From a virus: a DNA stretch of 64,000 nt. The number at the start of each line of letters is the position of its first letter. Within the stretch, counting starts at the first letter, position 1. The DNA lies in UHGV virus genome UHGV-0124283; one strand, written 5' to 3'. The notes under the pieces are model-generated. The model was given only the letters and a program-made list of their open reading frames with translations, was not told the DNA's origin and did not search any database. A program made the translations under genes and the position numbers. Shown piece after piece: positions 32,563-41,020 of the stretch.

Positions 32563-34290
32563 TTACTCAGAGTCACCGGCATCAATCGTGTCGCCGCTAA
32601 TGAAGTTAAGCCCGCCTTTTTTGGCCATTGTCAGCGTTACACGAGTGAAGTAATCAGCGCCGTTGCGTGGGTGCATATCGTTGATAGCCGAACCCCACAG
32701 CGTGGTACGGTTGACCAGCGCCGGAGTGGTCGGATGCTGGAACGGGATGGCCGGGACAGCATCACCAGTCACGAAGCCTGCTTTACCCGGATTTTCATCA
32801 CGGACGTAGCACAGCACATCCATCGAGCTGAACTGAATGTTCTCTGTCGTTAAGTTCTTACAAATACCAGCAGGTACTTCGTACACTTTCACGTTACCGA
32901 ACAGGGTACCGATGTAGTGAACATACGGAGTCTGGATATAGTCTTCGGCTGGCTGGAAGAAATCCTTCGGCAACTGTTTGAAGAAAGATGCTGCATCAGC
33001 ACCAGCAAACATCCCCATCGCACCAGAAGATTTAACGCGCTCAATAATGTCGCGATATACAGTCTGGAATTTGCCACGAATGATGGTTGCCCATACATCA
33101 AAGGACTGGTTAACCGGCAGAGCGATGTCAAAGGTGTCGTTCGCAAGAGTACGCCAGATCATGATGCGAAGACGCAGCATATCCTGTTCATGAGACAGGT
33201 ATTCCTTCAGGGTGCGGAACTGTAGGGAACCCAGGTCCAGACCAAATTCACGCTGTGCTTCATACGCCGCCTGTACCGTGTGCTCAGCCGCGATAACGAA
33301 CTGGCTTGGGAACAGGGTGTATTTCTTCATTTCGTGGTTGATCAGCGGGATCAGCTCAGGAGCGGCTTCAATATTGATTTCCGTCTCAATTGCGATCTCA
33401 GTGCCTTTATCCGGCGCTTTGGAGAACGACAGGGCAATCTGACCAATGTTGTAGTTCAGAGAGCAGGTAACAGTGATTTGCTCACCAGCAGCATTAGTAA
33501 ACGAGTGAAGTAGGCTGCCGGAACCGTTATCAACAACAGACTTAATACGGTTAACGTAGATATTAGTGCGACCTTTTCGGATTGGTACATTCTGGCCTTC
33601 GAAGTCTTCCATCTTGAAGGTTGCGGTTTTGCTGGTGCCATCGGAGCTTGCCACCAGCACATAGCGGCGGCGTAACTGGCTGTACACACCGACGGATTGC
33701 ATGTCCAGAACATCACCAGCAGCATAAGAACCAAAAGAGGAACCTGCCACGTTAAAGACTTCATAGATGTCGGACTGGTCACGCGTAACCGGAATGAAGG
33801 TACACGCATCAGCGGTAGCTGCCCCCAACTGAACAGGCAGGATCATCGCGAGGAATAAAGGCAGACGCATAACACCGTCAGAAACGCTCATCATCTCTGC
33901 TGCGACGGATTCCAGCATCGCTTTATTAGTGGCATCCATGCTATTGCGGGTGGACTCAATCAGGCAGTTTTCCAGCGTCTGGTGGCAGGAGGCCAGAATT
34001 TCCGGACGCGGCATAGATTTATGTGCTGCGGCGTAGTCAGCCAGTGCACTTGCCCACGCTGTAGCGATTTGAGCGGTGGCATTATCAGAGATACCCGCAA
34101 AAACCGGGTCTTTACGTGCAGCTTCAAGGATAGATGCGGCACGCGCGGCATCATCTTTAATGAATTGGTTATCAGTACCGAACTGCGCAGTGCTTGCCCA
34201 GCCAAGCACAGCTTTAGAGCGTTTTGCGATATCTGCAATACGATTCTGGTATTCGCGTAAGTTACTCAATTTACTCTTCCTTAAACACAA
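32563..34290 (-). CDS. putative major head-region protein (P1 gene 23 position)
   Basis: 575 aa ORF immediately before parS-parB-parA; TTG start, true start uncertain. Confidence 0.45.
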   Translation of the reverse strand: MCLRKSKLSNLREYQNRIADIAKRSKAVLGWASTAQFGTDNQFIKDDAARAASILEAARKDPVFAGISDNATAQIATAWASALADYAAAHKSMPRPEILASCHQTLENCLIESTRNSMDATNKAMLESVAAEMMSVSDGVMRLPLFLAMILPVQLGAATADACTFIPVTRDQSDIYEVFNVAGSSFGSYAAGDVLDMQSVGVYSQLRRRYVLVASSDGTSKTATFKMEDFEGQNVPIRKGRTNIYVNRIKSVVDNGSGSLLHSFTNAAGEQITVTCSLNYNIGQIALSFSKAPDKGTEIAIETEINIEAAPELIPLINHEMKKYTLFPSQFVIAAEHTVQAAYEAQREFGLDLGSLQFRTLKEYLSHEQDMLRLRIMIWRTLANDTFDIALPVNQSFDVWATIIRGKFQTVYRDIIERVKSSGAMGMFAGADAASFFKQLPKDFFQPAEDYIQTPYVHYIGTLFGNVKVYEVPAGICKNLTTENIQFSSMDVLCYVRDENPGKAGFVTGDAVPAIPFQHPTTPALVNRTTLWGSAINDMHPRNGADYFTRVTLTMAKKGGLNFISGDTIDAGDSE

Positions 34291-34404
34291 GGCACTTGTG
34301 TGAATCCCTTTTCGGAAGAGATTTTATTGAAAGTCACTTGTTGACTTTCTCGTGACAAGCAATTTTTTTATTTTTTTCGGGAGTAGGGGAGGAAGGTAAA
34401 ATCC

Positions 34405-34493
34405 AAGGTGAAATCGTGGCGATTTCACCTTGAAATTTTAGATAGATTTACTTTAAAAACAGTTGGTTAATAGTGAAATTTGAATGGCGAAAG
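34405..34493. promoter_or_regulatory. parS: parS centromere
   Basis: Heptamer ATTTCAC and hexamer TCGCCA boxes (ggtgaaatcgtggcgatttcacc ... tagtgaaatttgaatggcga) around an AT-rich bend, immediately downstream of parB. Confidence 0.6.
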
Positions 34494-34494
34494 T

Positions 34495-35496
34495 TTAAGG
34501 CTTCGGCTTTTTATCGAGGCTCTTTCTAAGGATATGCCCAATCATCCTGTCGAGTTCTTCCTGTAGCTCTTTTGAAAGTCGATTAAACTCATAAGAAAAT
34601 GCACGGCCTTTCACGCGCTTCCTTGCAAAGCGATCCTTGTCCTCAAATTTCCATAATTCAGTAACTACGGATTTATCTTTAGAACCTTTATCCGTGAGTA
34701 GTGAGGCTTCCTTTGTTATCAAGCGCAGGATTTTATTTTTAACTTCATCTTCGGCCATTTCTTCAATGGATAAGATGTCGTTTATTTCCGGGGATATGTT
34801 TTGAATAAGCTGATCAAACTCTAAATTCTTGTTCCCCATTTCGTCGCCAACAGCACAAAGCGTTTTGTAGTCCGAAAAGGTTAATTCCGACTGAACAGGG
34901 AAAAGGGCGACTAATTCTTCCGGAGCACTCGCTGCCTGGAGAGCACGCGTGACCTTCGCCTGAGACAGCCCTTCTTTGGCTGCAATATCCTTCTGACTCA
35001 TCCCATCATTTTTCATTCGCATCAAACGCAGACCTATTTCTCGAATGCTGTGCTGCAATGCTGTCTGAACGTCTTTCGCTAAATTCTGCGCTTCCTGAAC
35101 GCTGATCTCCTGGTCCGTGACTAAAACCCGCAACCCTACGTTCTCTAAGATGGCAGAAGCTCGACGCCGGGAACCATCCAAAATTTCAATTTTCCCTGTA
35201 GCCCGTCTAACACCTATTGCAGGGTAAAATTGCTGATGCTTAATAGTGCTTCGGATACTTTTTAATGATTTTGGCGTAAGAGATGCCTGGTCACGCCCGT
35301 TGTTATGCTGATCAACAAAGGTATCGCTTTCTACCTGGTTCGGAGGTATTACCTCTTCAATAAATGTGGCCTGGCGACCAGTTGATAACTTGAATACCTG
35401 CTCGACTCGATCGCCAGAGGCTGAAGAACTATCAAATCCGCTTAATATTGAAGGATTAAGGGTTCGCCCAATTGTTGGTCTGTTTTTCTTTGACAT
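34495..35496 (-). CDS. parB: partition protein ParB
   Basis: 333 aa; translation MSKKNRPTIGRTLNPSILSGF... recognised as P1 ParB. Confidence 0.85.
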   Translation of the reverse strand: MSKKNRPTIGRTLNPSILSGFDSSSASGDRVEQVFKLSTGRQATFIEEVIPPNQVESDTFVDQHNNGRDQASLTPKSLKSIRSTIKHQQFYPAIGVRRATGKIEILDGSRRRASAILENVGLRVLVTDQEISVQEAQNLAKDVQTALQHSIREIGLRLMRMKNDGMSQKDIAAKEGLSQAKVTRALQAASAPEELVALFPVQSELTFSDYKTLCAVGDEMGNKNLEFDQLIQNISPEINDILSIEEMAEDEVKNKILRLITKEASLLTDKGSKDKSVVTELWKFEDKDRFARKRVKGRAFSYEFNRLSKELQEELDRMIGHILRKSLDKKPKP

Positions 35497-35512
35497 GGGG
35501 GTTTCTTACTCC

Positions 35513-36709
35513 TCAGTTAGATCTGATAAATTCAATACGGTCAAAAACTGCTTTAGCAAAATCTTCCGCGGCAATTCGCGCGTTCTTCAATGCATCAGCA
35601 CTACCAACATACGTTGCCGGGTTAGCTGAAATAACAGTGTCAAAAGACTCGCCGCAGCGTTCAAAACCGTCAAGGCGAGGGAGGACGACATCAAGCATAT
35701 CCCCACCGAACACTTCTTTAGCCAGGCTATGGCAATACTTATGATCTGCCTTGTTACTCAACTTGGACATAAAACCAATGTTAGTCGCAAGCTGGCACTC
35801 GCAGCCTTCATCCGAAATGAGTTTTACCAACTCAGGAAGGCGGGCAACGTATTTAAGCGATGAGTGGAAATCGACAGTTGCTGGCGGCAGAGGTGTAAAC
35901 AGTATATTGGCCGAGGCCAAAGCATTTTTCAGGAAGGCGTCAAGGTGAGGACCACTATCAACGAGGATAAAGTCATAATCGCTCTTCAGCTTATCAATCA
36001 CATTTTCTTTCAGGACAGCATGGATGTTCTGACCCGGTAGATGCTCATTGCACAGCTCTCTCCAATCGGATGCAATAAAGGCATCGTCAATCGACGCAGG
36101 CATAACGTCAACCCCAGGTACAACAGAAGGAACAATAAACTCCTCTAACAGCTCTTCACGGCTTACATTCTGCAACATAGCCTGTGCAGATGTTGCGTTT
36201 ACGATACCAATAGAGTGTTTATGGCTTAAAAACATCGTTGCTGAAGATTGCGGATCAAGGTCAATAACCAGAATCCTTAAATCTTCCATCAGAAGATGAG
36301 GGTGGGCACGCATTGCATGCGCCAGAGAAACCGTCGATACAGTTTTTGACACACCGCCTTTAAGATTGGAGATGAAAATCACATACGCTTCGCTGTAGCG
36401 ATCCCGGTATTTTGGCACTCCGCGATGTTCATATATGTCAATGATGTTCTGAATTGACATCGCATATTTCATTGAAGAGCCAGCAGGGCGTTTATCGAAA
36501 ACATAACCCTTTTCTTCCATTTCACTTACGGCATAGTCAACGTTCGCTCGAGTCAGTAGAGGCAATTTTGCCAGTGCCGCTTTCGCATAGACCTGGTAAA
36601 ACTCGTTCGCGTGTAGCTCATCCTTTTGCAACTGTACTTGTTCAGTCAGAACATTGAGCATTCTGTTTGCTCTTTGAGCAACCTTGTGAAGCTGGCTGGA
36701 ATCACTCAT
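35513..36709 (-). CDS. parA: partition ATPase ParA
   Basis: 398 aa; deviant Walker A KGGVSKT; N-terminal DNA-binding extension. Confidence 0.85.
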   Translation of the reverse strand: MSDSSQLHKVAQRANRMLNVLTEQVQLQKDELHANEFYQVYAKAALAKLPLLTRANVDYAVSEMEEKGYVFDKRPAGSSMKYAMSIQNIIDIYEHRGVPKYRDRYSEAYVIFISNLKGGVSKTVSTVSLAHAMRAHPHLLMEDLRILVIDLDPQSSATMFLSHKHSIGIVNATSAQAMLQNVSREELLEEFIVPSVVPGVDVMPASIDDAFIASDWRELCNEHLPGQNIHAVLKENVIDKLKSDYDFILVDSGPHLDAFLKNALASANILFTPLPPATVDFHSSLKYVARLPELVKLISDEGCECQLATNIGFMSKLSNKADHKYCHSLAKEVFGGDMLDVVLPRLDGFERCGESFDTVISANPATYVGSADALKNARIAAEDFAKAVFDRIEFIRSN

Positions 36710-36844
36710 CGAAAGTCATCCTTTATGCTGTATTTTTGAATTTAATTAAAAATGCTGCATAAAATAATAATGTATGCGTAGATGCTTGTACATAGCATTC
36801 TCTGCATGTTTGGTTCATTTTGCACGATTGAGAGTTACAAGGAG

Positions 36845-36872
36845 GGCACAAAAAAGCCCCGTTCAGGGGCAT
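36845..36872 (-). terminator. rho-independent terminator of the inserted T5orf172-like gene
   Basis: Minus strand gcccc-tgaac-ggggc followed by TTTTTT. Confidence 0.55.
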
Positions 36873-36877
36873 CAGTG

Positions 36878-37687
36878 TTATTTGCTAAGAGCAGCGAATA
36901 ATCGTTCGAAATCGATAGTATCTATAGCACGCGTAAGCGCCGGAAGTTCAGCCTCAAAGTACCCGTGTCGATCGTAAAAGAAGGGACCGAAGAGCGAGGC
37001 ATGTTGGATTCTACTTCGCCCCAGCCCGGACACACAGTTAAGCCCATTACCGGCTAAAAGGCTAAAAAACTTCTCTGGATTATCGTGGTAAAGCTGGGAA
37101 TCAATGGTGGCGGTTAACTCTTCCATAGGGAAGCACACCCGCCCTGTATCCCAGGGATATTTAGTCCGAAGCATAAACATTGCTTTCAGCAATTCACATT
37201 GAGCGCGGATCGCGTCCGGTTCATAGCCAGATATGGAGACATAAGCCACGTCCCTCATTCCTGCGTCATCTTTGAAAGTCACGATAGAAGTAACATCCAG
37301 CTCTTTTTCGAAAGAGCAAGCAGCATCTACTGGACGCTGAAGTAAATCATTCGACTTAATGCGCTCGAGAATCCCTCCCCACATATCATTTAGATATTCG
37401 ATATGAGCCAAAACCTTATCAAGACACTCTCGTGTAAACCATTCAGTATGCCCGCCACCGACGCTTTTCTCCCACGGCGCATTCCAGGGGAAAAAGGTTG
37501 CGTGTAAAGCCCGCTCAAGATTAACCATTACCAAACGCGTACCACGATAGACCCGTGAAAGCGCAAAATCGGGACTCACTTGTAGCCCTTTAAACCGTGC
37601 CAATGGACCACATGAAATGCCGATTTTAAAAGTATCTCCGTTCTCTGGCACCAGAACGTAGAGGTAGTGTTGTTTCTCTTCTTGCAT
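36878..37687 (-). CDS. GIY-YIG/T5orf172-like domain protein with unknown C-terminal domain
   Basis: 269 aa; N-terminal YLYVLVPENGDTFKIGIS...R...HTEWF pattern; sits between incA iterons and parA promoter. Confidence 0.5.
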   Translation of the reverse strand: MQEEKQHYLYVLVPENGDTFKIGISCGPLARFKGLQVSPDFALSRVYRGTRLVMVNLERALHATFFPWNAPWEKSVGGGHTEWFTRECLDKVLAHIEYLNDMWGGILERIKSNDLLQRPVDAACSFEKELDVTSIVTFKDDAGMRDVAYVSISGYEPDAIRAQCELLKAMFMLRTKYPWDTGRVCFPMEELTATIDSQLYHDNPEKFFSLLAGNGLNCVSGLGRSRIQHASLFGPFFYDRHGYFEAELPALTRAIDTIDFERLFAALSK

Positions 37688-37704
37688 ATCAATACCACTG
37701 CTTG

Positions 37705-37975
37705 ATGAGAACCGCGCAAATGTTGACTATGCGCGAAGGTTAATGTGAATAGTTGACTATGCGCGATGTGACTACAGTCAAAAGTTGACTGTAGTCGATT
37801 TAACTCCACCAAAGATCGACTATGTAAGATATTGTCGGGAGAAACGTTGACTATACGCGATGAAATGCCCCTAAAAGCCATCTCAATAGCGACTTGCAGA
37901 ATATTGACGCCAGCAAAAATCCACCAGCGTCAACGAATGTCGCCTATAGTCAACTTCTCGCTATCGCATATAGTC
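37705..37975. repeat. incA-type iteron array downstream of repA
   Basis: About eight copies of tTGACTATgCGCGA-like iterons in both orientations. Confidence 0.65.
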
Positions 37976-37979
37976 AATA

Positions 37980-38864
37980 TTATGGATTGCGCTTATGGAT
38001 CTGGAAGCCGATTTTCCTGCCGTTTTTTATCTCTGAAAATTTAAGATATTCAATAGCTTCCAAATCTTTCATGGCTTTTCTGATAACGCTATTTTGCACG
38101 CTAACGGATGATTTGAGATTAAGCCTCGCTCTAAGGCGCTCAATGCTGACAGGTGCCGGGTTGGCGGGTAGAGCCTCAAAGAATGTATACAGTACCTTGG
38201 CCGTCTCTTTGCGCCCTAGTTTATCCAGCATCTTCAGCTTCAGGATTCGCTTATAGTCAACATAGTAAAGTTCAGATAGCTGTTTCTGCGGCTGGATCTC
38301 GATAACATCAAGCTCGGTATTCAGGCTGCTATATGCCAACAAGTTGACGTTAATGTTATTGAGATGACCTTTTGCCGCCGGGAAGCGGAATTTGACAACT
38401 GTCTGCTGAATGCGTGTCAGAGAGTCATCAATACTTTTACGGAACGCCTTTGAAAGGCGCTTACGTGGATAGCCGCATCGATCGGCAAACTCGGAGAATG
38501 GCAGGGTGATTATGCCGTCATCATCAGGTGCGTAGTCAAACAACGCGGAGGTTATGCCCACCCACACCTTAAAATCAGTATCCATATCCAGGCGTGGACC
38601 ATGAATTTCAATTCCCTCATAGCCTTCCTGCTCAACAATTTTGAGGCTTGATAGTTCTTCAGTTGCGTTCGTTGTGTTTGTTGTAACTGACGATCCGCGA
38701 CGTAGCGCCACATTGGTAGATTTTAAGGTTGGCACAAACACACCTAAGCGCAACAAAGCGATGGGTTGTATAGTGCTGTTGTTATTGGGCTTCAGGCTGT
38801 GGATTTCTCCTGTATTTCCTGCAACTTCTTCAACGCTAAGGAAGCCTTTACTTTCTTCCGGCAT
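37980..38864 (-). CDS. repA: iteron-binding replication initiator RepA
   Basis: ATG 38864 after GGAGAAA RBS; flanked by iteron arrays on both sides. Confidence 0.8.
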   Translation of the reverse strand: MPEESKGFLSVEEVAGNTGEIHSLKPNNNSTIQPIALLRLGVFVPTLKSTNVALRRGSSVTTNTTNATEELSSLKIVEQEGYEGIEIHGPRLDMDTDFKVWVGITSALFDYAPDDDGIITLPFSEFADRCGYPRKRLSKAFRKSIDDSLTRIQQTVVKFRFPAAKGHLNNINVNLLAYSSLNTELDVIEIQPQKQLSELYYVDYKRILKLKMLDKLGRKETAKVLYTFFEALPANPAPVSIERLRARLNLKSSVSVQNSVIRKAMKDLEAIEYLKFSEIKNGRKIGFQIHKRNP

Positions 38865-38944
38865 CACGGTTTCTCCATGTGTGGCGCGGCCTGACGTCAA
38901 TTTGGATGGCTGTTATCAACAGCTGTGAATATTCAGACTCTAAA

Positions 38945-39150
38945 ATCGCTTACAGTCAATGTTTCTGTCGCGTATAGTCAACAATAAATCGCGTGCAGTC
39001 AACAATAAATCGTGCACAGTCAACATAAAATCGCGTATAGTCAATGTTGATCCCATTTCAGGCCAGTAATGACGCGGCTTACAGCGATCCGGGATCTTCT
39101 TTGGATCTTCCTAGGTTCTCTTTAGGATCTGTTTATTGGATCTATGCTGT
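38945..39150. repeat. plasmid origin oriR: five iterons, GATC cluster and DnaA box
   Basis: Five direct repeats TCGCGTATAGTCAACAAT-like (38945-39048), then five or more GATC sites and tgtggataa. Confidence 0.65.
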
Positions 39151-39199
39151 GGATAAGTTGAATAAACCGGCCAACAAAGCCGGTTGGAAGGAAGTCATA

Positions 39200-39592
39200 T
39201 TATTCTACGCTTTCGATAAGAAGACCATGTTCATAACATTTAAGCTCATCGCCTTCGTACAGGAATTGGTATCCAATACCACCATTTTCATGGACATTAG
39301 GGAATAACTCATAACTCACTGAAGAGCAAATCACACCAATGCAACGATCAACGCCTTCTCGTTCTTCAGTGCTGAAAAAATCCTCTTCGGTAAGAACATG
39401 AGTACATTGCTCATCAGCATAGGTCGGAAATACATGCTCGATGCAATCCGGGTGTTTTAAACCAAGCTGATCGGCAAGCTCGAAAGCATGACGGTATTGT
39501 TCAGATCCTGGCTTGCCAACAGTGATGTGCTCAATTTTGTAGATTGAAGTCGCTTTGTTGATAGTTTGCTTTACTGTTACTTTATCAGACAT
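39200..39592 (-). CDS. hypothetical protein
   Basis: 130 aa ORF. Confidence 0.35.
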   Translation of the reverse strand: MSDKVTVKQTINKATSIYKIEHITVGKPGSEQYRHAFELADQLGLKHPDCIEHVFPTYADEQCTHVLTEEDFFSTEEREGVDRCIGVICSSVSYELFPNVHENGGIGYQFLYEGDELKCYEHGLLIESVE

Positions 39593-39603
39593 AAAAATCC
39601 CTT

Positions 39604-39855
39604 TTAGTTACCGCTGATAGCGCGGTTGTAATCATTAACGTTGCGATTCTTCCTGTTAATCCCCATCAGCATCGTTTCTGTATCGAGGATATACGCTGGC
39701 AGATCATCAAAATATTCACTGCTAAACTCTGGCATCCTGCACATAAATGCACTTTTTGGGGCAGGGTGGTTAACCTTTGTCGGCGTCGGCGTTAAATTCG
39801 CTGATCGACTCCCGGAGCAACCGCTGAGTGTCAGCAGGAATACGCTGGCGAACAT
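39604..39855 (-). CDS. o-spanin-like lipoprotein embedded in upstream gene
   Basis: From ATG 39855: MFASVFLLTLSGCSG with lipobox LSGC; Pro-rich mature region; overlaps 3' end of i-spanin out of frame. Confidence 0.5.
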   Translation of the reverse strand: MFASVFLLTLSGCSGSRSANLTPTPTKVNHPAPKSAFMCRMPEFSSEYFDDLPAYILDTETMLMGINRKNRNVNDYNRAISGN

Positions 39856-40192
39856 TACCCGCCGCAACCAGTTGTTTCTGAACTTCAGCTTTTCGTTCCA
39901 TTTGCCTGTCAGCATATTTGGCTTGTTCTGATTCATTTTTCACTTCCTGGCTGTGAAAATGTTGCTCTGCTTTGTTCATCGTCTCAATGGTCTGGTTAAG
40001 ATCCATTATTGACTTATCACGTTCCTTAACAGCCTGATCAAGACTGCCAATTTTCTCGATGGCTTGCTTTAGCTGATGACGTTCCCATGCAAACCCAGCA
40101 CCAACAAGTGCGCAAATCAGAACAAGAACACCAGTAGCAGCAAGTTTCTCCTTCAAAGACAAAGCTGTTTTTAACGTAGAAAAGAATGACAT
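39770..40192 (-). CDS. i-spanin-like protein (N-terminal TM plus coiled coil)
   Basis: ATG 40192 with AGGAGG RBS; TM GVLVLICALVGAGFAW then helical region. Confidence 0.5.
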   Translation of the reverse strand: MSFFSTLKTALSLKEKLAATGVLVLICALVGAGFAWERHQLKQAIEKIGSLDQAVKERDKSIMDLNQTIETMNKAEQHFHSQEVKNESEQAKYADRQMERKAEVQKQLVAAGNVRQRIPADTQRLLRESISEFNADADKG

Positions 40193-40231
40193 GTCTTCCT
40201 CCTGAAGAAAAATTATCAATGAAGTCCTTTG

Positions 40232-41020
40232 TTACTGTGCCGCTTTGTTTAATTCATCAAGAACAGAATCAGGAACCAAAGCGGCAACTGCGCTGGCTGT
40301 GCTGGCCTTATTTGCTGATGCTTCCGCAAGCGCGGTACCGATAGCATGGTTATAAGCAGTTATGGCTACGTTGGCGCTTTCATTCGCTCGTTCATACTGC
40401 TGTTGTAACGCAGTTGTGGGCGCTGTTGTCTGGTTGAAAACAACCCCAAACTGTTCAGTTGCTACTTTCAGAGATTCAATTTGCTCTTCTGTTAGTGCTG
40501 GTGGGGGAGTGGCAGTGCCGCCGCCTGAACCAGAGCCTGACGAGCTTCCTGAGCCAGTGTTAAGGGTCTGGTTAATCTCCCCCATAGCAGCAACTAAACT
40601 TGATGTATTAAGCGCGTTTACAGCGTCCTCAAGCGATTTAGTAATAGTCACATCACCAATGGCAATAGAGATCGGCAGTTCTGAAACTTCTCGCTCATTA
40701 GCACGGCAGTAAACATCCCAACCAATATCGAGTTGAAGCAGCATTGACAGATCTGCATAACCAGCCAACAGGTCCGCGTGCTTAGTTGCCAGTTCGACAA
40801 TGTTCGTTAAGCCTGTTGTGGTTGTTCTGATCGTTGAAACATAACTGGTAATAGTGTCGGGATAGACAATTGTATCCAAAATTAATCCGATCAATTCTTC
40901 TGCAAGCTGTTTTGCCGTGTTAGCACTGTTTCGTGCCGATGTTATGGCACCAAGTGTTTTCATCCCACCGGCTGCGGCCAATTTTTTATATGCGGATAAC
41001 TGGTAGTCTTTTTCCAGCAT
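40232..41020 (-). CDS. hypothetical protein with Gly/Ser-rich linker
   Basis: ATG 41020 with AGGAG RBS; TGSGSSSGSGSGGGTATPPP linker. Confidence 0.4.
   Translation of the reverse strand: MLEKDYQLSAYKKLAAAGGMKTLGAITSARNSANTAKQLAEELIGLILDTIVYPDTITSYVSTIRTTTTGLTNIVELATKHADLLAGYADLSMLLQLDIGWDVYCRANEREVSELPISIAIGDVTITKSLEDAVNALNTSSLVAAMGEINQTLNTGSGSSSGSGSGGGTATPPPALTEEQIESLKVATEQFGVVFNQTTAPTTALQQQYERANESANVAITAYNHAIGTALAEASANKASTASAVAALVPDSVLDELNKAAQ

Follow-up and report, generated by a model that had tools for sequence, protein, structure and literature searches.

A T5orf172-type nuclease gene at the edge of an exchanged replicon cassette in P1-like phage-plasmids

The 64,000-nucleotide stretch of the UHGV virus genome UHGV-0124283 analyzed here (the window) is, judged by its sequence, a P1-like phage-plasmid of the p0111/RCS47 type. 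Between the iterons downstream of its replication gene repA and the promoter of its partition operon it carries a gene (36878–37687, minus strand) for a two-domain T5orf172/GIY-YIG protein of 269 amino acids. We report that this gene belongs to a swappable replicon cassette and marks its edge, that four very divergent lineages of it occupy the same slot, that it is dispensable, and that its second domain looks like the winged-helix domain of plasmid initiators. The gene already carries a generic annotation (RefSeq plasmids label it “GIY-YIG nuclease family protein”) without prior study, and the literature searched held nothing connecting GIY-YIG proteins to P1-like phage-plasmids. Tentatively, at a probability of about 0.45, we read it as a homing-type, replicon-linked, site-specific nuclease serving competition between P1-family replicon cassettes; the activity, the target, homing, and the mode of transcription in this reading are what we infer.

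The nuclease gene and its replicon cassette

The open reading frame (ORF) starts with ATG, is intact, and spans 810 nt including its stop codon (36878–36880), and PHROG 2876, a family without assigned function, matched the protein over its full length. A terminator-like site starts 8 nt past the stop codon (36870..36856, minus strand; GCCCCTGAACGGGGC followed by TTTTTTGTGC); in a sequence scan it reads as an intrinsic-terminator hairpin and T-run, and a comparable hairpin and T-run come after the homolog in locus L005. This predicted terminator would end the nuclease gene and insulate the par promoter (Ppar), and might also end a transcript of the repA gene. High identity across PLSDB and phage records, a ratio of nonsynonymous to synonymous polymorphism (pN/pS) of about 0.31, and homologs of 26–44% identity at the same position mark the gene as more than a chance ORF. 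The original prediction, whose span of 36845–37690 encloses the ORF and the terminator, had described an 810-bp minus-strand gene for 269 amino acids with its own hairpin and T-run terminator, filling the gap between the iterons downstream of repA (37722–37978) and the parA promoter (36764–36792), and each of these statements stands.

On the minus strand the region reads upfA, the GATC/DnaA part of oriR, origin iterons, repA, downstream iterons, nuclease gene, terminator, Ppar, parA, parB, and parS. From the origin through repA, the control iterons, and the par operon to parS, this order is shared with the maintenance region of P1 and P7 (NC_005856, NC_050152); ParA and ParB of the window are 99.7–100% identical to those of P1, and the GATC/DnaA part of oriR is kept. 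In contrast, the window RepA shares 41% identity with P1 RepA (and 45–48% with RepFIB proteins of large enterobacterial plasmids), the iterons differ from those of P1, and the 810-bp gene with its terminator is an addition before Ppar. In blastn comparison with P1, homology of 99.4% over 34000–36811 ends at the right-hand breakpoint of the cassette (36811/36812), 67 nt past the nuclease stop codon, while the left-hand breakpoint (39061/39062) lies inside oriR after the incC iterons, with P1 homology (93.9%) from 39062 on. The 2250 bp between them (36812–39061), holding origin iterons, a RepFIB-like repA, downstream iterons, and the nuclease gene, stand in for the 1491 bp of P1 incC-repA-incA. 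This “p0111” replicon is that of RCS47-, SJ46-, and JL22-type elements, for which an earlier report noted only that the place of repA is taken by 'repA' (p0111) together with an unknown gene, gp57' (PMC9603915).

In P1, P7, and Cronobacter phage JK004, nothing but iterons and a short spacer separates repA from parA; the nuclease gene is absent, and tblastn for remnants of it in these three genomes found none. The expectation that P1 and P7 lack a gene between incA and the parA promoter was borne out by this reference comparison, JK004 behaving likewise. The accompanying claim of an insertion into the P1 repA-incA region needs revision: the gene is indeed extra relative to P1 and P7, but it came with a whole replicon cassette, since it forms the end of the 2250-bp block that replaces the 1491 bp of P1, and the repA beside it is not that of P1.

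Relatives were sought by word-index searches and by an exhaustive hidden Markov model (HMM) search over 1.84 billion representatives, which together found only three further full-length lineages, 44% (P0004), 26% (P0009, Salmonella), and 28% (P0011, fecal metagenome) identical to the window protein. All three divergent homologs belong to P1-like elements and are flanked there by parA on one side and by repA and its iterons on the other, and the slot is occupied beside three RepA types (that of the window and L003, that of L004, and that of L005), the L004 RepA being 83% identical to P1 RepA. Presence of the gene is thus polymorphic at one locus, with the window, L003, L004, and L005 having it and P1, P7, and JK004 lacking it. 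The backbones of L003 and L004 are close (ParA 99.7%, ParB 98%, major capsid protein 99.5%, flanking DNA 96–98.6% identical), whereas identity falls to 39.6% for RepA and to 28.5% for the nucleases. The divergent segment ends 84 nt past the nuclease stop codon between L003 and L004 and 54 nt past it between L005 and P7, and its other end lies about 180–200 nt upstream of repA. Three independent comparisons therefore place a breakpoint 54–84 nt past the nuclease stop, at the edge of a recombination tract and next to essential genes. From these alignments we conclude that the nuclease gene is the terminal gene of a cassette exchanged as a block via the conserved oriR-left and Ppar-parA flanks, because the divergent segment again ends just past it in L003/L004 and in L005/P7.

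The window allele itself is widespread. At least 90% protein identity was found in about 401 PLSDB plasmids (93–100% in 401 of the 403 plasmids with a match), mostly from Escherichia coli with some from Salmonella, Shigella, and Klebsiella, and the gene is present in 12 phage records. The cassette occurs in 419 of 5426 complete E. coli genomes (7.7%), and RepA' at 95% identity or more occurs in about 395 PLSDB records, so that the gene and repA' are linked nearly 1:1. The nuclease ATG lies 20–34 nt past the last iteron in all four lineages (34 nt in the window), on the repA strand and with no terminator between. Its transcript is probably shared with repA or else begins among the RepA-bound iterons.

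Domains of the protein and of its relatives

Residues 1–104 (37376–37687, minus strand) form the N-terminal nuclease domain. Pfam T5orf172 (PF10544) matches residues 8–85 with an E-value of 9.5e-6 and 26.5 bits, against a gathering score of 20, and the motif consists of Y8-L-Y10-V-L, F20-K21-I-G23-I-S25, R31, and H80-T-E82-W-F84. PF10544 also matches 135 of 142 aligned sequences (141 relatives and the window protein). A 52-sequence alignment shows no variation at Y10, K21, G23, R31, E58, and E82 and almost none at D40, S44, L61, H62, G79, T81, W83, and F84; across all 142 sequences, G23, R31, E58, and E82 still do not vary, and conservation of Y10 is 90% or more. By analogy with Glu180 of Odn and with other GIY-YIG enzymes, Y10, R31, and E82 are the putative catalytic residues (PMC8263062). 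The modeled N-terminal domain has the GIY-YIG α/β fold. The T5orf172/GIY-YIG pattern first noticed in the letters (YxYVL...KIG.S...R...H.EWF) is confirmed by the motif and the Pfam score, and the lack of a GIY-YIG-like fold, named beforehand as grounds for giving up the assignment, did not materialize. The remark that such domains are often found in anti-phage or mobile-element nucleases fared less evenly: PADLOC-DB v2 gave no defense family at E-values up to 1 and NCBIfam no match for the 269-residue protein, so that membership of a known defense system was rejected, and the nearest kinds are T5orf172 homing endonucleases and origin-directed nucleases.

The C-terminal domain (residues 105–269, about 165 residues; 36881–37375, minus strand) is an orphan by sequence, in agreement with the earlier description of a C-terminal domain of about 170 residues as unassigned. 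An AlphaFold2 model built on the 52-sequence alignment is confident in both domains (mean predicted local distance difference test score 85.4), and the best non-GIY structural neighbors of the model are the Rep WH1 domain 6h24, RepE, and RctB; the fold search gives no aligned ranges, and the Rep matches were assigned to the C-terminal domain by inference from their fold difference from GIY-YIG and from alignment lengths. At the level of predicted fold, the domain appears to resemble the winged-helix domains of iteron initiators, and its fold neighbors suggest a role in DNA binding or targeting. BLASTP and hhalign against six RepA proteins, ParA, and ParB found nothing, nor did a profile search against PDB sequences or a Pfam scan of the C-terminal domains. 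HMM and hhalign comparison with the Rep3 regions of the fusions described below also found nothing, the search being insensitive, as a control with true RepA failed too. A recent capture of a RepA domain, as in Odn, was considered and rejected, the domain having no sequence match to any initiator by BLASTP, HMM, hhalign, Pfam, or PDB sequences.

Domain partners in the 142 aligned sequences are almost all DNA-binding by Pfam (helix-turn-helix, winged helix-turn-helix, ribbon-helix-helix, zinc fingers), and the sole recurrent partner is Rep3_N, in four proteins, with Rep3_C in two. Fusion of T5orf172 to an iteron initiator's DNA-binding domain is, going by these domain matches, a real architecture in the subfamily, and one not mentioned in two accounts of T5orf172 nucleases (PMC8263062; PMC10448857). 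The Rep part of one such fusion, P0047, is up to 70% identical to stand-alone initiators. On a phage-like metagenome contig (L014:6617-9293), a stand-alone rep with its own iterons (three or four, of 32 bp) before it is followed, after 20 nt, by a 430-residue T5orf172-Rep3_N-Rep3_C fusion. L017:300-1798 is a homologous locus without the nuclease, with flanking genes 83–87% identical to those of L014. The Rep part of the L014 fusion is 70% identical to the L017 Rep but only 47% to its own neighboring Rep, and the iterons of the two loci differ, the pattern to be expected of a nuclease aimed at a rival replicon allele. This arrangement was rejected as a general rule, since two fusions of about 580 residues that join T5orf172 to a full-length Rep3 initiator (L020:383-2125 and L021:5001-6749) are not directly downstream of rep: the L020 fusion does not adjoin a separate rep, and the L021 fusion lies 2.4 kb from one on the other strand. 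These two may be initiators bearing a nuclease domain rather than anti-replicon weapons.

Constraint, null alleles, and candidate functions

Across six p0111-type alleles, pN/pS was 0.31 for the whole nuclease gene (0.23 for the N-terminal and 0.35 for the C-terminal domain), compared with 0.04 for repA, 0.00 for parA, and 0.08 for parB, and 20 of the 34 polymorphic nuclease codons alter the amino acid. Independent null alleles were found in three of five divergent plasmids, a sample biased toward divergent alleles: Q36* (L011:2601-3410), a 2-bp frameshift near codon 41 (L012:2601-3405), and S112* (L013:2601-3410). The plasmids carrying them are complete and circular and come from Japan, the USA (Escherichia albertii), and Germany. 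Some four to six of 40 evenly spaced PLSDB matches also appear disrupted (about 10% of sampled alleles), and truncated N-terminal variants, 205 in all, make up a protein cluster of their own, with several lying on long contigs. A 168-residue C-terminal “protein” (P0003) was rejected as evidence of decay, being cut by the contig start. One member of cluster 2, P0244, is a 184-residue truncated nuclease on a 173-kb Edwardsiella ictaluri plasmid, outside the usual Escherichia/Salmonella range.

Because constraint is weak and nonsense and frameshift alleles occur naturally, the nuclease is dispensable for plasmid maintenance and is not a maintenance gene. Nor is it a core component of P1-type maintenance, being absent from P1, P7, and JK004 and occurring as null alleles in some complete plasmids. 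It had been anticipated that the original prediction would fall if P1-like references carried the gene as a conserved maintenance component; a homolog is indeed carried by about 400 plasmids and by three divergent lineages, but not as a maintenance component. Judged by the substitution pattern, the nuclease is still under some purifying selection, and the putative catalytic residues are kept in all four lineages.

Under the favored homing-type reading, the N-terminal T5orf172 catalytic domain joined to a C-terminal winged-helix targeting domain would make the protein a site-specific DNA endonuclease, accessory to the element. With two P1-like elements in one cell, it would cut the replicon region of the rival, either at the nuclease-less incA-Ppar junction or in the rival's iterons. 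The cut would then be mended by recombination through the conserved flanks, the oriR GATC/DnaA segment at one end and Ppar-parA at the opposite one, and the rival backbone would receive a copy of the nuclease along with the repA-iteron cassette to which it belongs. Likenesses to the GIY-YIG homing endonucleases I-TevI and SegA-G of phage T4 include the size (about 245–290 residues), the build (a catalytic region of about 100 N-terminal residues, a linker, and a C-terminal DNA-binding domain, the last putative in the window protein), and the free-standing intergenic location with own expression signals; the window protein differs in belonging to another GIY-YIG subfamily (“FKIG” for “YIG”) and in lacking I-TevI-type NUMOD/helix-turn-helix modules.

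The homing-type reading is ranked first because the features of the gene fit those of T5orf172 homing endonucleases (Barth, Dunham and Seed, 2023, PMC10448857) and of Odn (Barth et al., 2021, PMC8263062). The former “occupy boundaries of genetic exchange” near essential genes, are variably present, and are often frameshifted (PMC10448857), and the position of the window gene at the cassette edge (67 nt, and 84 nt in L003/L004) matches this pattern. The free-standing, phage ICP1-type members resemble it in pairing the same Pfam nuclease domain with a second domain (DNA-binding in those members, putatively so in the window protein), in being present or missing at a single locus in closely related genomes, in lying near essential genes at the edge of exchanged segments, and in having frameshifted or truncated alleles, of which Q36*, S112*, the 2-bp frameshift, and the truncated variants on long contigs are the counterparts here, as the decay phase of a homing cycle would have it. 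Unlike them, the window gene lies in a phage-plasmid replicon, between repA-iterons and par, rather than among lytic phage core genes, its C-terminal domain is not of the zinc-finger, CapR, DUF723, or AP2 type, and its copies are very divergent across lineages and near-fixed in p0111. Homing is a proposal for the ICP1-type genes as it is for the window gene. Odn (ICP1 gp88) is a T5orf172 nuclease shown by experiment to cut origin iterons via an initiator-like domain, in a system with swapped repA/ori modules (PMC8263062). Odn and the RepA_N-T5orf172 proteins (PMC8263062; PMC10448857) share with the window protein the joining of T5orf172 to a domain of initiator type (by predicted fold in the window protein) and the theme of modular, swapped repA/origin cassettes. 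In Odn, however, the DNA-binding domain is N-terminal, of the RepA_N family, and recognizably like the RepA of its target, whereas the putative one of the window protein is C-terminal and Rep3-type winged helix by predicted fold, with no sequence match; and Odn is encoded in the predator of the targeted element, whereas the window gene stands beside the repA of its own element.

Several points weigh against the homing-type reading. Nuclease activity, the DNA target, and homing are assigned by analogy, and the likeness to Rep appears at the level of the predicted fold. No nuclease-less p0111 allele was seen among PLSDB records, the gene being essentially fixed in that lineage. Near-identical nuclease copies in diverged backgrounds, a sign of recent homing, were not found; the lineages are 26–44% identical, less conserved than their flanks, and nothing points to recent homing from one cassette to another. 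The covariation of the nuclease with RepA type is explained by linkage alone, the ATG lying 20–34 nt from the last iteron. A consensus scan gave no convincing sigma-70 promoter of its own between or within the last iterons in any of the four lineages, the sole nearby match on the nuclease strand falling inside the coding region.

A more specific version, “replicon-homing”, strikes us as doubtful: the Rep-WH1-like domain would recognize the iterons, or RepA-iteron complexes, of the rival and cut there, and repair would swap the whole ori-repA-incA cassette. If true, this would be a selfish system with a plasmid replicon as its cargo, it would account for the split of P1-like phage-plasmids into IncY and p0111 and for their rare co-residence, and the L014/L017 pair would represent this system at a lower divergence. 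Among the 5426 complete E. coli genomes, 419 carry the p0111 cassette and 361 the IncY replicon, with a union of 778, so that both are found in two genomes when about 28 would be expected under independence; no single record holds both. The depletion is compatible with exclusion, and we give it no weight for the nuclease because the same outcome is predicted by partition incompatibility from the P1 parABS that both have, by common immunity, and by relatedness of the strains.

That depletion would also suit an origin-directed defense nuclease of the Odn type acting without homing, in which the Rep-like domain guides the enzyme to the iterons of unrelated competitors (other plasmids, satellites, incoming phage-plasmids), which are destroyed for the benefit of the resident. 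The predicted Rep winged-helix-like fold, the T5orf172-Rep3 fusions among relatives, the experimental precedent of Odn (PMC8263062), and the fact that origin-directed T5orf172 nucleases have evolved repeatedly (PMC10448857) all speak for it, and we place it second to the homing-type reading, as unlikely: similarity in sequence to any initiator is missing, unlike in the Odn-type proteins with their recent domain capture, the co-occurrence deficit has the other sources just named, and the constant slot at the cassette edge would go unexplained. A domesticated accessory of replication or partition, less likely again, would use the Rep-WH1-like domain to bind iterons or to pair with the WH1 of RepA, and so tune handcuffing, copy number, or Ppar/repA expression. 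WH1 is the dimerization domain of Rep initiators, the ATG is placed just past the last iteron on the repA strand in all four lineages with no terminator between, and the allele always travels with its RepA type; CapR, a T5orf172-derived repressor that regulates transcription, offers a precedent (PMC10448857). Yet P1, P7, and JK004 replicate and partition without the gene, natural null alleles persist in complete plasmids, the catalytic residues, needless for a pure regulator, are fully kept, and repA and parA are under far stronger constraint.

The confinement of all four lineages to one P1-like replicon slot, rather than to defense islands, argues against a moron, a prophage-borne nuclease for anti-phage defense or superinfection exclusion that would have no part in replication, be expressed in the lysogen, and cut incoming phage DNA or act by abortive infection. 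T5orf172/GIY-YIG domains do occur in defense systems, and the gene's own terminator, its location in a plasmid-prophage, and its fast-evolving C-terminal domain would suit such a role, but no PADLOC model matched, the gene is single with no partner, and about a tenth of sampled alleles appear disrupted; we rank this idea below the accessory role and consider it improbable. Least probable of those weighed is a decaying, functionless remnant of an old mobile nuclease carried between two essential modules: the nonsense and frameshift alleles, the many truncated variants, and the raised pN/pS are what it would predict, but a pN/pS of 0.31 is well below 1, most alleles are full length and intact, the ORF is open in all four lineages, and the catalytic residues are kept across lineages only 26% identical.

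E. coli and Salmonella commonly harbor P1-like phage-plasmids, which are recurrent carriers of extended-spectrum β-lactamase and other resistance genes, and the IncY versus p0111 split is used in typing, so far without explanation. If a linked nuclease drives or polices replicon replacement, it would provide a mechanism for incompatibility switching and phage-plasmid competition, and origin-directed or homing T5orf172 nucleases would become a concept that reaches beyond phage-satellite conflicts into plasmid replicons. Even as no more than a decaying selfish gene, it remains useful for marking where the cassette ends.

Neighboring features and annotation

Upstream on the minus strand, upfA (39200–39592) is followed by the retained P1 part of oriR (39086–39163, minus strand; from P1 annotation mapped by alignment and from sequence), with its GATC cluster and a DnaA box (TTATCCACA at 39148–39156). 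Five origin iterons at 21–22-bp spacing (38946–39045) are equivalent to incC. The repA' gene (37980–38864, minus strand, with the RefSeq start codon) encodes a Rep3-type (RepFIB-like, “p0111”) initiator of 294 residues with Pfam Rep3_N and Rep3_C matches, and the interval from its stop codon (37980) to the nuclease ATG is occupied by the six iterons equivalent to incA (37722–37978), those at 37722, 37752, 37784, and 37846 having one orientation and those at 37940 and 37964 the other. Searching for TCGCGYATAGTCAAC with at most three mismatches gave 16 matches in the whole window, against 2.5 expected by chance. One iteron with a single mismatch, TCGCTTATAGTCAAC, lies within the repA coding sequence (38247–38261). 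A degenerate iteron-like element on the minus strand (TCGTGCAAAATGAAC, 36815–36829) closely follows the terminator, a few nt within the cassette from the breakpoint of P1 homology. It agrees at 12 of 15 positions with the origin iteron variant TCGTGCACAGTCAAC and was marked as forming an inverted repeat with 39001–39031; it may be due to chance, or may be a relic placing the nuclease gene inside the iteron array.

Beyond the right-hand breakpoint, the P1 par promoter (36764–36792, minus strand) has its −35 element at 36787–36792 and its −10 element at 36764–36769, with the ParA operator at about 36707–36785, as transferred from P1 annotation through the 99.4% alignment and supported by a consensus scan. 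The P1-type genes parA (35513–36709) and parB (34495–35496), identified by Pfam, follow on the same strand, ParA being 99.7% and ParB 100% identical to the P1 proteins. The two flanks of the cassette are unequal relative to P1, with 99.4% identity on the par side (34000–36811) and only 93.9% on the upfA/ppfA side (39062–41000), which suggests that they have different recombination histories.

An Rfam scan of the region for structured RNA gave no match at E-values up to 1. Public annotation of these elements is inconsistent: MOB-suite types such plasmids as replicon “IncHI1B”, the record of phage phi456 names the nuclease gene “terminase small subunit”, and RefSeq phage records name the RepA of the homologous region “replication helicase”.

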